A program made the translations under genes and the position numbers. This document shows positions 54,150-57,517 of a stretch of 64,000 nt of DNA, in pieces. The notes beneath the pieces are model-generated. The model saw nothing but the letters and a program-made list of their open reading frames with translations. It ran no database searches and had not been told where the DNA came from. Every line of letters starts with the position of its first letter. Positions within the stretch are counted from its first letter, which is position 1. The stretch is from a virus, in the IMG/VR virus record IMGVR_UViG_3300013794_000014, positions 77,060 to 141,059 of that record; one strand, given 5' to 3'.

Positions 54150-54608
54150 ATGAGAATCATCAAAATAGAAAACCCAATATATACACATGTTAAAACCTTA
54201 CCTGCAAACGTTATATCACGCATATTACTTGACCTACGAATTCTGTGTAGTGGATACAATGAACTCGGTATAACGGCACAATCAAACATTGCATACGAAA
54301 TCTATGACTTACTTGAACGTGACGAAAAAACATATTTGTTCAACGTCACAAACTTCGACCCAAACCTACTTTCGCAATGTACAGATAACATTCGAAGAAA
54401 TTCAACAAAACCTGCCTACCTTGTCTACAACCACTTAGAACGCCTAGAAGTTGAACAATCTATGTACCTAAAGAAGTTCTTACCAATATATCCTGAAAAC
54501 GACAACTTATTCTTACGTCAATGCTTACAATCTATAATAGAAAACATAATGGAAAACAAAAACAAAAATAAAAGAGGTGATAACAATGCAAACTTTAGGT
54601 GGGAATAA
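54150..54608 (+). CDS. hypothetical protein upstream of RNAP-2 (possible accessory subunit)
   Basis: AGGTGG SD before ATG 54150; overlaps the start of the beta'-like gene. Confidence 0.65.
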   Translation: MRIIKIENPIYTHVKTLPANVISRILLDLRILCSGYNELGITAQSNIAYEIYDLLERDEKTYLFNVTNFDPNLLSQCTDNIRRNSTKPAYLVYNHLERLEVEQSMYLKKFLPIYPENDNLFLRQCLQSIIENIMENKNKNKRGDNNANFRWE

Positions 54609-55956
54609 CAACACATACATAAAAGAAAAGATTCAACAGATAACCTCAGATAAAAGAGTCCAAAGAATAATAGAGGTTTGTAGACAACTTAATAGAGCCG
54701 ACACCGATAGACTCATAATGATGAACATATCATTATCTGATAAAGAATGGACAGAGATATTCAAAGATGCAGTAGACAAATTGACAAAAATACATGTACC
54801 AACAATATACGGTAAAGTTGTCCAAATAGACTATGAAAATCTTGTGATGCTTCCAATAGAAGACAAAAACCGTTACAAAGTACTTGTCCTAGAAGAAAAA
54901 GACAATATGCTCCAAGTAACCGACATAAAAGACGCCAATAACTTCGAAGAAAATGAACTATTAGCATTAGTTGGTAGACACCCCTTCGTAGATACTCTCG
55001 GATGGATAATGACAAAAGTAACATTCAGTAAGGAACTCAAAGAAGTCATAGGAATTGGACAAAAAACATGGAAACAAAGAGGTGGAGACTTCGACGGAGA
55101 TGCAGCAATGATCATATTGCTTAAGTTACCAAAGAAATACTATGACAAATATGTACCAGAAGTAACTAGAAGCACATATAGATCACATGAATACATTAAG
55201 TTACCGAAGAAATCCAGTAAAGCAGTAATCAGCATAGAGTTCAACGACTTAACAATACCGAAGGTTGAATTCCACTATGTAAAAGACAACAAATGTAGAA
55301 TCTTTCCAGAATCCATAAGTCATTTGCAAAACTTAGAGACGTTAACTGGTGCTATACTCATGGCAATCAATATAGCGACAAACTATCGTGTCAAATGGAC
55401 TAAACAACAATTGAAACGTAATACAGAAATGCTCATAACAGCAATAAAACAAGAACTACAAACATTGAAACAAAGAAATCCACAGTTATTTGCAAAATAC
55501 GCAATAATCTTCAGTAAAATACATCCAACATTTCTACAAATAGTGACACCATTACTGTTCATTGACAACATCGACCTAGAAATGTACCAAGCAATACTAA
55601 GAGTACACATAAAAGACAAAGGTCCAAGTCTATTCGGATACCTTGAGAAAGTCTTCTTGAGTGTTGCACAAACCAGAGAAGACATTGAACGCGTACTTAA
55701 GTACATATCGAAACATCAACAGAAAGTCATTGACATGAAGAAAGCAGAACATTCACTATTAGACTACAATGAAGCGTTGATAAGTAAGAATAAAGAACAA
55801 CTAAAAGAATCAGAATTAAAAGACTTGTATGAAAGGTGGAAAAATGTAGATGCAAACTGGAGTAAAAACAAATGGCAACTCCTAGTATACGGAAAAACAA
55901 ACGACATAATAGACTTACTTGCTGCTATAGTCCATAAAATCTGTTATGAGAGGTGA
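54586..55956 (+). CDS. minimal RNA polymerase beta'-like catalytic subunit (RNAP-2)
   Basis: LVGRHP (RxP) followed about 35 aa later by QRGGDFDGDAAM (codons 55087-55101). Confidence 0.8.
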   Translation: MQTLGGNNNTYIKEKIQQITSDKRVQRIIEVCRQLNRADTDRLIMMNISLSDKEWTEIFKDAVDKLTKIHVPTIYGKVVQIDYENLVMLPIEDKNRYKVLVLEEKDNMLQVTDIKDANNFEENELLALVGRHPFVDTLGWIMTKVTFSKELKEVIGIGQKTWKQRGGDFDGDAAMIILLKLPKKYYDKYVPEVTRSTYRSHEYIKLPKKSSKAVISIEFNDLTIPKVEFHYVKDNKCRIFPESISHLQNLETLTGAILMAINIATNYRVKWTKQQLKRNTEMLITAIKQELQTLKQRNPQLFAKYAIIFSKIHPTFLQIVTPLLFIDNIDLEMYQAILRVHIKDKGPSLFGYLEKVFLSVAQTREDIERVLKYISKHQQKVIDMKKAEHSLLDYNEALISKNKEQLKESELKDLYERWKNVDANWSKNKWQLLVYGKTNDIIDLLAAIVHKICYER

Positions 55957-55961
55957 TCCGA

Positions 55962-57083
55962 ATGAGTGTAAATGTAAATACCATTCCTGAAACACTTCTT
56001 ACATCATTTCTTAACGAAATAATAGAAACAATTGTCAAACTTAACGATGTGGACGTAGACTTAACAAATGCATATATTAGAAAAATTCTAGGGTTGAAAA
56101 GTGTCAGATCCTCAGTTCCACATGTAGAAGGTTCAAGAACAACCCTATTAATGAACGGACATAAGACATTTGGCATAACCGCACTGTACAGCTCAACCTC
56201 ATTGAACCTACTAACAGCATTAATAGCATCAGAAGAACTTGATGAAGACATCGCAATACTAAATAAACCACTAAAAGCATATTTAGATATCAAAATTGAA
56301 AAACCAATACCAGACAACTGGGCAATTACTAGAAAAGATGGGTTTATCAAGAAAGGTGAACTTATTGCAAAAGGACCAGAACCATTCGACGAAATTAGAG
56401 CAAACATAAGTGGACACTTGAAAATCGCATTTAGACAAATAATACTTGAAGCAAAACAACCAATTACAACAGGAAGTAAAATCCAAAACATATTTCTGCA
56501 AAAACACGTCTTGAAAGCAGAACACAATAGATTCAGATTCGTAAACATGAAAGAAGAGAAAGTAAAAGTTACAAAGATCACTAGAAAGAACCTTAAACGT
56601 ATTGGACTTAGACCAAAAATCGTCAATATTGCAGAACATGTAGACAAACCAACCCTAGTAGCAGGTTCAACTTCAGTACTCAAAAGACGTTCATCAGGAA
56701 CATTGGCACAACTATGGTTAGGATACCAATTAGCGTTTACGAACAACAAAAATAAAAATAAACCGTCAAACGAAATGGATTGGAATAAACATAAGACAGT
56801 ATACGTGACAAAAGTCTATGATACAAAACATCAGACATATCATGACGCCATAATCGGAATTGGATGTTGGCTTGTAGCAATCAATTCAAACGGCTATGAG
56901 TACAAAATAGCAAACAAACATACAGATATATTCGGTAGGCATATTAATAGCGTGTCAATAGATCCATTTGCCTTCAAAGTCCTTCAATATAAATATCCTG
57001 AGTTATCTTACGCATTTATCGAATATCAACTTAGAATGCGTGAATTAAACTTACGTAACTACTTTAAAGGAGGTGATCTGTAA
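55962..57083 (+). CDS. minimal RNA polymerase beta-like subunit (RNAP-2)
   Basis: NLLTALIASEELDEDIAIL (ED motif), GSKIQNIFLQKHV (K-x7-K), TSVLKRRSSG; C-terminal SIDPF matches SIDYF of the 1..708 protein. Confidence 0.7.
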   Translation: MSVNVNTIPETLLTSFLNEIIETIVKLNDVDVDLTNAYIRKILGLKSVRSSVPHVEGSRTTLLMNGHKTFGITALYSSTSLNLLTALIASEELDEDIAILNKPLKAYLDIKIEKPIPDNWAITRKDGFIKKGELIAKGPEPFDEIRANISGHLKIAFRQIILEAKQPITTGSKIQNIFLQKHVLKAEHNRFRFVNMKEEKVKVTKITRKNLKRIGLRPKIVNIAEHVDKPTLVAGSTSVLKRRSSGTLAQLWLGYQLAFTNNKNKNKPSNEMDWNKHKTVYVTKVYDTKHQTYHDAIIGIGCWLVAINSNGYEYKIANKHTDIFGRHINSVSIDPFAFKVLQYKYPELSYAFIEYQLRMRELNLRNYFKGGDL

Positions 57084-57517
57084 TGCAAATTAAAATAACA
57101 GAATTAAACGAACAGAAAACCACTTGTAAAAGAACTTCCAAAATCAGAAGATTCTTCGATAACTTACTTGACAAATTCTTAAAGCAATTAAAAGAAGACT
57201 TAAAAGATCACGTCAAAGACGACCAACAACTAATAGACACACTAAATGAATTCTTACAACACAAACAGATAATAATCACACTCGATGAAGAAGAAACTAT
57301 GGAGTTCAGAAAGTACTCAAGGCGTGATTACAGTGATGGTGACACATGTACATTGTTGGAAAACGGAGTGTTCCTATCGTCATTTAATGGACCAAAACAG
57401 TTCATAAAGGCGTTACTTGACATAGGCATTAAACCACCAATCAAAGTAAGAATCAAGTATGACAGACAAGGTAAAATCAATATAAAGTTCACAAGAAAAA
57501 TCGACTTACCGCTATAA
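57083..57517 (+). CDS. hypothetical protein coupled to the RNAP-2 genes
   Basis: TAATG stop/start overlap; GGAGGTGA SD. Confidence 0.7.
   Translation: MQIKITELNEQKTTCKRTSKIRRFFDNLLDKFLKQLKEDLKDHVKDDQQLIDTLNEFLQHKQIIITLDEEETMEFRKYSRRDYSDGDTCTLLENGVFLSSFNGPKQFIKALLDIGIKPPIKVRIKYDRQGKINIKFTRKIDLPL

Follow-up and report, generated by a model that had tools for sequence, protein, structure and literature searches.

A predicted two-chain, two-barrel RNA polymerase of very small size encoded by a four-gene operon of a probable archaeal virus

Small relatives of the two-barrel cellular RNA polymerase (RNAP) have been described in several forms. In the Thermus phage P23-45, the pre-early genes are transcribed by a virion polymerase fused to the tape measure; one of them encodes a non-virion polymerase of the two-barrel type, and this enzyme goes on to transcribe the early and middle genes (PMC10770324). 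The jumbo phages phiKZ and AR9 encode sigma-independent enzymes made of small polypeptides derived from beta and beta', with an extra specificity subunit, and the polymerase of baculoviruses and nudiviruses is a four-protein enzyme (LEF-9, LEF-8, LEF-4 and P47) with separate small beta'-like and beta-like subunits. YonO of SPbeta (PMC5467207), gp66 of phi14:2 (a crAss-like phage) and QDE-1 are single polypeptides that possess little beyond the two barrels, and their similarity to the cellular enzymes is confined to the catalytic motifs. As for archaeal viruses, a 2017 review states that these have no RNA polymerase gene and rely entirely on the enzyme of the host (PMC5569661), and our literature search found no published description of any archaeal-virus RNA polymerase or of the family reported here. 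We analyzed a 64,000-nucleotide stretch of viral DNA (the window), which corresponds to positions 77,060-141,059 of the IMG/VR record IMGVR_UViG_3300013794_000014 (141,059 bp, rated complete). The window carries an operon in which a beta'-like protein of 456 amino acids (aa) and a beta-like protein of 373 aa are encoded side by side. On the basis of sequence motifs and predicted structures, we estimate at a probability of roughly 0.7 that these proteins, as a heterodimer, make up the catalytic core of a DNA-dependent, non-virion RNA polymerase of the two-barrel type that the virus encodes.

The operon consists of four + strand genes in tight succession at 54150-57517, as judged from the list of open reading frames (ORFs) and the start sites read from the sequence. 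Strong Shine-Dalgarno (SD) sites of the GGTGAT type set the starts at 54150, 54586, 55962 and 57083. The end of the first ORF (152 aa) overlaps the start of the beta'-like gene by 23 nt, the TGA stop of the beta'-like gene falls within the SD sequence GAGGTGATCC with the beta-like ATG 5 nt on, and the beta-like stop overlaps the start of the last gene (144 aa) in a TAATG. These junctions confirm a first-pass annotation, in which the two catalytic genes were described as adjacent and translationally coupled and as flanked by two coupled ORFs without known family. Its size estimate, about 830 aa or roughly a third of cellular beta plus beta', is also accurate: the two proteins total 829 aa, about 30% of the 2749 aa of E. 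coli beta plus beta'. Since runs of T bracket 54150-57517 as one unit, we infer that the four genes are co-transcribed. The two copies of AAYTAATGACATTT before the first gene are the only ones in the genome, and the pair is a candidate promoter or operator.

Residue numbers of both catalytic proteins count from GTG starts. The beta'-like protein contains the motifs G133-R-H-P-F and G169-G-D-F-D-G-D175. In an alignment of nine sequences with identities down to 18%, R134, H135, P136, G170, D171, D173, G174 and D175 are invariant, as are R342, G349, P350, G354, K358, Q381, Q382 and K388 in the C-terminal part. The spacing from R-x-P to DFDGD is 37 residues, versus 35 in Methanocaldococcus RpoA'. 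In the six-frame translation of the 141-kb genome, D-x-DGD occurs five times, and at three of these sites R-[YH]-P is found 35-38 residues upstream, comparable to the 35 of RpoA'.

The AF2 model of the beta'-like protein (mean pLDDT 70) was compared with known structures. The top 50 Foldseek matches in the PDB were all largest subunits of RNAPs (E 6.5e-4 to 8.5e-3), among them those of African swine fever virus, Pol IV/V, Sulfolobus, Pol I/II/III and vaccinia; since these targets have three times the length of the viral protein, the TM-scores are low. BFVD and the ESM Atlas returned Rpb1-domain-2 proteins encoded by giant viruses, poxviruses and phages, as well as LEF-9 of baculoviruses. In the VIA comparison, the barrel scored Z 8.0-9.6 against RNAP largest subunits (7eu0_A, Z 9.6, 109 residues aligned, rmsd 3.7; 2pmz_A, Z 9.2), and Z 7.4, 7.5 and 6.7 against the phage enzymes P23-45 gp96, AR9 (7s00_d) and phiKZ (7ogp_A), respectively. 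The protein is thus predicted to carry a double-psi barrel of the beta' type with a DxDGD metal loop and R-x-P about 35 residues before it. In its C-terminal half, a candidate bridge-helix stretch lies in a long predicted helix and resembles SGYMQRRLINAL (SGYMQRRL) of Methanocaldococcus RpoA', without a significant profile alignment. An hhalign comparison with a distant relative from contig L106 (E 8.5e-6) covered this region and the C-terminal half. The helical C-terminal half may include a bridge helix.

The beta-like protein contains E98-D99, K176-x7-K184 and K244-R-R246. In an alignment of 12 sequences with identities down to 23%, D99, K176, K184, R193 and R245 are invariant, and E98 is conserved in at least 90% of the sequences. 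The blocks are collinear with archaeal RpoB', where EDIAILNK corresponds to MEDALILNK, GSKIQNIFLQKHV to GDKFASRHGQKGV and KRR-S-S-G to PSRM-x-x-G. The beta-type signature (ED, two lysines spaced by seven residues and a downstream arginine) occurs in the order expected for the putative beta-type barrel. Residues 111-174 were modelled confidently as a sandwich-barrel hybrid motif (SBHM), which scored Z 8.3 against NusG DII, Z 7.4 against a Thermus beta' insert (rmsd 1.3, 50 residues aligned), Z 6.8 against RNAP SI3 and Z 4.7 against the E. coli beta-flap (3tbi_B). The SBHM fold makes the beta flap at the same position and also several beta' inserts. The protein further aligns by hhalign with a 254-aa mini beta-like protein of the same genome (E 2.3e-4, 134 columns). 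The RHP...GGDFDGD and ED / K-x7-K / R motifs reported by the first-pass annotation are present, and their conservation across the family shows that they did not arise by chance. Fragments of Cas9 RuvC/PI, which appeared in the Atlas feature search with a score of 0.92, were rejected as noise; no Pfam Cas9 match was obtained, and shuffled proteins reach such scores in 4-10 of 100 cases.

The two catalytic proteins were co-folded with both alignments. The ipSAE values were 0.89, 0.87 and 0.89, while the best control reached 0.00; in the calibration, the pass mark was attained by 58 of 80 solved complexes and by 2 of 110 mismatched pairs. The runs share at least 83% of the contacts, of which about 425 were predicted, and the partner pLDDT is at least 87. 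The interface involves residues 170-174 (the DFDGD loop) of chain 1 and residues 97-100 (ED), 173-176 and 184-188 (the lysines) and 243-249 (KRR) of chain 2. In the prediction, both barrels are packed together with the catalytic residues of both at one site, and this is the geometry expected of a two-barrel active site. Since no sequence relative has a solved structure, recall of a known complex by the predictor is a less likely source of this result. An interaction of the pair, on which the initial proposal had been made to depend, is thus predicted (ipSAE 0.89 versus 0.00).

Relatives of the two proteins are few, and the whole family comprises about a dozen members in a set of 1.8 billion representatives of protein clusters. 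Among 5.8 billion proteins clustered at 90%, nine relatives were found for the beta'-like and eight for the beta-like protein, and a profile search of 1.84 billion representatives with the latter detected six, three of them distant at 23-25% identity. These three (hmmsearch E 2e-18 to 2e-28; contigs L105, L106/L107 and L108) are each directly preceded by a gene for a protein of 519-563 aa. The one encoded at 4329-5978 of L106 passes the model PF00623 (Rpb1 domain 2) with 28.6 bits (cut-off 25.3), whereas the other two score 20 and 17.8 bits. The L106 protein aligns with the viral protein, and R-H-P, GD-DGD and the C-terminal residues are invariant between them. Because a member related to the viral protein passes PF00623, the family is tied to a curated RNAP model; it reaches this model through its own distant members and not through the viral protein itself, which does not attain the PF00623 cut-off, also in six-frame searches of the genome. 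The beta-like protein is likewise below the cut-off of PF00562, six-frame searches included, and no family member was seen to pass it. The operon gave zero matches in 50,697 phage records by blastn and tblastn, and a scan of IMG/VR with the beta'-like profile found no relative beyond the record itself. No fused forms were found among proteins of 829-2365 aa, which is weak evidence. A distant copy of the whole module is present in L107, a 207-kb contig of NCBI GCA_013761045.1, which may represent either a large provirus or a virus that was binned. Taken together, the fold, the conserved catalytic residues, the predicted heterodimer and the distant relative that passes PF00623 support the stripped-down two-barrel polymerase that had been suggested for this locus.

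Several observations weigh against this assignment. Generic double-psi beta-barrel domains (CDC48-N) reach Z about 10 in VIA, as high as the RNAPs; therefore, the fold alone cannot name the function of the beta'-like protein, and its naming depends on the fold and the invariant R-x-P and DFDGD signature together. Pfam, PHROGs and NCBIfam gave no meaningful match for any of the four operon proteins; for both catalytic proteins this holds for Pfam at E up to 1 and also for PDB sequence profiles, where the searches returned designed helical proteins and an RRM and nothing else, all at E >0.2. The hhalign comparison of the beta-like protein with five archaeal RpoB' proteins was not significant (E 0.037). 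Its monomer model is poor (pLDDT 51.6), and because of this the Foldseek search returned nothing at E <0.001, so that the barrel is not confirmed by fold search. The alignments behind the structure models are shallow (9 and 12 rows). Neither protein aligns significantly with the polymerase part of a giant protein of the same genome (E 0.33 for the beta'-like and 0.095 for the beta-like protein). The transcription cascade outlined below draws on analogy and the T-run pattern only, and the 92-bp repeat at the ends of the record may be an assembly junction rather than physical genome ends.

Table 1. Features of the operon, its surroundings and the rest of the viral genome. Positions are those of the window unless the genome is named.
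Feature	Position	Strand	Remarks
T-run-free block, candidate pre-early class	51691..58159	+	6.5 kb without sense-strand TTTT; nine consecutive ORFs; contains the operon
200-aa conserved gene upstream of the operon	53420..54022	+	In conserved block; genes of 186-207 aa at that position in L003-L006
T-run cluster (T4, T5, T4) after the upstream gene	54090..54117	+	Likely terminator; left boundary of the unit
Two direct AAYTAATGACATTT copies	54102..54133	+	Just upstream of the SD site of the first gene
First gene, 152-aa protein	54150..54608	+	ATG start; no recognised family
Beta'-like catalytic subunit, 456 aa	54586..55956	+	ATG start; 459 aa from GTG 54577
Double-psi beta-barrel, residues 73-201	54793..55179	+	Predicted; VIA-align
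DFDGD metal-binding loop, D171/D173/D175	55087..55101	+	Invariant; in predicted interface
G-P-x-L-x-G-Y-x-[QE]-K-x-[LF]-L stretch, candidate bridge helix	55621..55665	+	G349, P350, G354 and K358 invariant
Beta-like catalytic subunit, 373 aa	55962..57083	+	ATG start
E98-D99 in EDIAILNK block	56244..56249	+	Placed by hhalign on MEDALILNK of archaeal RpoB'
SBHM domain between ED and K-x7-K	56283..56474	+	Flap site of bacterial beta; fold comparison
K176-x7-K184 (GSKIQNIFLQKHV)	56478..56504	+	Counterpart GDKFASRHGQKGV of archaeal RpoB'; lysines invariant; in predicted interface
K244-R245-R246	56682..56690	+	Invariant R245 aligned with the PSRM arginine of RpoB'
Last gene, 144-aa protein	57083..57517	+	ATG start; no recognised family
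T-runs (T4, T5, T5) behind the fourth gene	57529..57553	+	Likely terminator; right boundary of the unit
TraB/PrgY/GumN-like gene downstream	57566..58159	+	In conserved block; apparent ATA start
GC-rich motif GACAYACCMTTMAGGCRG	51647, 52079, 53347	+	Three copies in genome, all upstream of units of the T-run-free block
17-mer TATTTAAGTTTATCAAT copies	51534, 62621(-), 62652, 63161; genome 568, 2120, 6715		
6956-aa ORF, N-terminal part with LRYP..DYDGD	11800-32670	-	PF00623 32.8-34.1 bits, above cut-off
Smaller split pair, 297 aa (R-Y-P..DADIDGD) and 254 aa (GDK..GQKG)	genome 76117-77767 (window -942 to 708; L002 3118-4768)		551 aa in total
Archaeal-type TyrRS, MptA and methanogen-type RecJ	genome 6769-7704, 43303-44184, 55548-56984 (L007, L009)		QueC and an HslU-like ATPase also carried
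24-nt repeat array	63920-64000 and genome 1-92		Contains the 92-bp direct terminal repeat

In the proposed enzyme, the beta'-like subunit would supply a beta'-type double-psi barrel, the Mg-binding DFDGD loop and a helical C-terminal half. The beta-like subunit would supply a beta-type barrel, whose ED, two lysines and arginine would hold the RNA 3' end and the incoming nucleoside triphosphate; between these motifs, an SBHM domain would form a small insertion resembling the flap. The active site would arise where the two barrels pack face to face, and the 152-aa and 144-aa proteins from the same transcript would most likely be accessory or promoter-specificity subunits. The structure of the genes, the conserved motifs, the fold of the beta'-like barrel, the predicted dimer, the synteny and the T-run pattern are results of the analysis, whereas RNA synthesis, the DNA template, the timing, the promoter, the roles of the small proteins and the archaeal host are what we infer from them.

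The order of the genes was examined in related contigs. In L003-L006, the homologues of the catalytic proteins have 44-57% identity, and the order is a gene of about 200 aa, a gene of about 140 aa, the beta'-like gene, the beta-like gene, a gene of about 140 aa and a TraB-like gene. Homologues of the 152-aa protein occupy the same position in L003 and L004 (identity 32-46%), and those of the 144-aa protein in L003, L004 and L006 (identity 26-30%). In L105, L106 and L108, a gene of about 128 aa stands before the pair and one of about 150 aa after it. Thus, down to 18-25% identity, the catalytic genes keep their order (beta'-like before beta-like) and remain enclosed by a small ORF on each side. 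Because their positions are conserved and a single T-run-bracketed unit holds them, the link of the flanking ORFs to the polymerase gains indirect support. The earlier suggestion that these ORFs may be partners of the polymerase accordingly stands as far as shared position and transcription unit are concerned, and a role as subunit or specificity factor is a candidate one.

A simpler arrangement, to which we assign an appreciable but clearly smaller weight, is that the heterodimer by itself makes up the enzyme and that the products of the two flanking ORFs (152 and 144 aa) are early proteins with no relation to it, serving for instance in host takeover, which simply share its transcript. The small proteins are without detectable family (the 152-aa protein gave no Pfam or PHROG match, and no usable match in the Atlas feature search), activity without partners is known from single-chain enzymes like P23-45 gp64 (PMC10770324), and the genes in L004 are 34-48 nt apart with no overlap. 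However, wherever the flanks of a related contig are long enough, both small genes are found beside the catalytic genes, also when the identity of the catalytic proteins is only 18-25%, and this favors the four-gene module.

The host was considered from other genes of the record. The viral tyrosyl-tRNA synthetase (TyrRS) is 60-65% identical to the Methanothermococcus and Methanocaldococcus enzymes and about 50% to those of other methanogens, and it passes the archaeal-type model NF006330. The MptA-type GTP cyclohydrolase scores 228 bits, above the cut-off, and the best model for the RecJ-like protein is RecJ_Meth (E 1.4e-91). The sole strong matches among sequencing runs came from one hydrothermal vent metagenome sample, possibly the source of the DNA; no RNA run was listed. 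A host in the Methanococcales is, in our judgment, quite probable. Over 204 nt, the DUF6884 gene (58825-59028) is 68% identical at the nucleotide level to a contig from one Methanococci genome (G037), possibly because genes have been exchanged with the group to which the presumed host belongs. When positions 44001-64000 were compared with 40 Methanococci genomes, no spacer-like match was detected, and only low-complexity matches and this one at 68% were obtained. The lack of a spacer-like match would suit a vent bacterium as host, in which case the enzyme would be one more phage polymerase and the archaeal-type genes acquired cargo, and the strong GGTGAT sites fit bacteria as well as Methanococcales. 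We regard a bacterial host as unlikely, since the TyrRS is closest to the Methanothermococcus and Methanocaldococcus enzymes, archaeal-type RecJ and MptA are present, the source is a hydrothermal vent metagenome, and the G+C content of the genome (33-37%) fits Methanococcales.

Two further two-barrel enzymes appear to be encoded in the genome. The N-terminal part of a 6956-aa ORF passes PF00623, so that a polymerase domain is present in a giant, putative tail protein, and the ORF is a candidate for a tail-protein-fused virion polymerase of the P23-45 kind. The smaller split pair of 297 and 254 aa gave sub-threshold Pfam matches, with the 254-aa protein matching PF00562 weakly at GDK..GQKG. It sits among genes for dCTP deaminase, RNase H, ERCC4, NrdD and PolB, and is a candidate for a priming role in replication. 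The 456/373-aa pair appears to be the most diverged of the three and no recent copy of either other. The genome also codes for terminase, a portal-like protein, a family B DNA polymerase, NrdD and ATP-dependent ligases.

With three such enzymes in one genome, one may differ in task, and motifs alone do not fix template and product. The heterodimer could accordingly make RNA for replication primers, or from an RNA template as QDE-1 does, rather than for viral transcription, and no primase turned up in partial Pfam scans of the genome. We consider this improbable, because the 297/254-aa pair is the one located among replication genes, whereas the operon lies among small early-type genes. We consider it very improbable that the pair is a DNA polymerase of the two-barrel type or a structural relic without catalytic activity. 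A core of two barrels is found in PolD as well (PMC4996933, PMC7708050) and the sequences are extremely diverged, but every residue that RNAP catalysis is expected to need is invariant in the family, the genome already encodes a DNA polymerase of family B, and the fold matches are RNAP subunits and not PolD.

Among the described systems, P23-45 (gp96, gp64) is the most similar in organization. As in this phage, the genome of a long-tailed virus of a hot habitat appears to encode a giant tail protein with a polymerase domain (the phage counterpart, gp96, scored Z 7.4 against our barrel) and, apart from it, a highly diverged two-barrel polymerase of the non-virion kind that is located in a distinct early block. 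In contrast, gp64 is a single chain with the beta-like barrel first, whereas here two chains are found and the beta'-like gene is first. The viral operon also differs in the two extra small co-transcribed genes, the third polymerase-like pair and the probably archaeal host, and no significant sequence similarity was detected between the pair and the P23-45 enzymes.

A 6.5-kb block around the operon has an unusual composition. In its nine ORFs TTTT is absent, whereas 1000 synonymous-codon shuffles contained 14.6 on average and at minimum 3 (0 of 1000 reached zero), and TTTT is present in nearly every other gene of the genome, including all other long ones. The T content of the block is 22-25%, versus 28-32% elsewhere. 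Between 51.4 and 58.6 kb, + strand T-runs of at least four are intergenic only, and therefore whichever polymerase reads the block would stop at short T-runs. The modules of L105, L106 and L108 are likewise poor in T-runs and end in T7-T9 runs.

The 17-mer TATTTAAGTTTATCAAT is present in seven copies, exact or with one mismatch, within about 20 kb around the record ends. Most copies are 10-40 nt before an SD site and start codon, often followed by CCGACC and then the SD, and the motif is long and conserved, like a virus-specific promoter. No copy is directly before the operon; the copies precede neighboring genes around the record ends. Since the genes behind TATTTAAGTTTATCAAT do contain TTTT, they are probably read by a different enzyme than the T-run-free block, and the heterodimer is therefore a candidate for them. 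By analogy with P23-45, transcription of the T-run-free block would come first and would be due to another polymerase, probably the giant tail-fused protein after its injection, and the heterodimer would then read a later gene class, for which the TATTTAAGTTTATCAAT genes are candidates. The motif GACAYACCMTTMAGGCRG gave no Rfam match and may be a promoter or an RNA element. For middle and late genes, promoter motifs were not definable, as TATA-like words are too near the start codons to interpret.

The pair was also compared with the other enzymes. LEF-9 (about 495 aa) is similar in size to the beta'-like protein, with an Atlas TM of 0.33/0.31 over 227 residues and BFVD rows 32-33, and the baculovirus enzyme is likewise built of four proteins. 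However, LEF-8, with about 880 aa, is more than twice the size of the viral 373-aa protein, baculovirus hosts are insects, and LEF-4 is a capping enzyme whose counterpart was not seen in the operon. No Pfam match to the LEF-9 (PF05094) or LEF-8 families was obtained, and the resemblance to LEF-9 is a weak one of fold. In the phiKZ and AR9 enzymes, which belong to phages of bacteria and can be identified by sequence, the bulk of cellular beta and beta' is retained, divided into N- and C-terminal halves, whereas the viral pair consists of one beta'-like and one beta-like chain and matches them structurally in the barrel only. YonO, phi14:2 gp66 and QDE-1 differ in being single polypeptides. With Methanococcales RpoA'/RpoB' (Rpo1N/Rpo2), the pair shares R-x-P about 35 residues before DFDGD, and ED-x-I-L-NK followed by K-x7-K and an arginine block; it is about a third of their size, with most other cellular domains lacking as judged by size, shows no significant profile similarity and has the beta' gene before beta. 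We therefore place the putative enzyme in the two-barrel RNA polymerase superfamily, outside the single-chain, LEF-8/LEF-9 and jumbo-phage split families. It would be a new, very small, heteromeric form of a known kind of enzyme, in what is probably an archaeal virus with three of them.

The fuller picture, a head-tailed vent Methanococcales virus with multi-stage transcription by a tail-fused polymerase, an 829-aa heterodimer with two partners and a 551-aa pair, is in our view evenly poised between being right and being wrong. If this picture is true, the heterodimer is the smallest known heteromeric cellular-type RNA polymerase. It would also be the first functional RNA polymerase known to be encoded by an archaeal virus, and would offer a natural model for the minimal heterodimer of two barrels thought to be ancestral to beta and beta'. 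With 829 residues, a minimal flap and perhaps a bridge helix, it would be close to the smallest proposed ancestor of cellular RNA polymerases. A Methanococcales virus with its own polymerases would change the picture of complete dependence on the host enzyme, and would raise the question of how host transcription dependent on TBP/TFB is escaped. The small size suits easy expression, mutagenesis and structure determination of the heterodimer, and the T-run-free block suggests a simple oligo-T termination rule.

Some additional features of the genome were recorded. The 92-bp end repeat of the record sits within a tandem array of the 24-nt unit CGCTTGGTCCATCATAGTGTCCAA (about nine copies overall), and for this reason the viral assembly is probably closed. 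An Rfam search of 51000-60000 gave a single sub-threshold snoRNA-like match only. A 608-bp non-coding stretch (59080-59687) contains several TTGGGAACATT-like words and a CCAGTAAGTCCAG repeat, and may be a replication origin or a regulatory region. Finally, the TraB/PrgY/GumN-like gene aligns to its homologues from an ATA located 5 nt past an GAGGTGAT site, while its first ATG/GTG/TTG (57638) would lose about 24 conserved residues. Thus, ATA is probably a non-canonical start of this gene.

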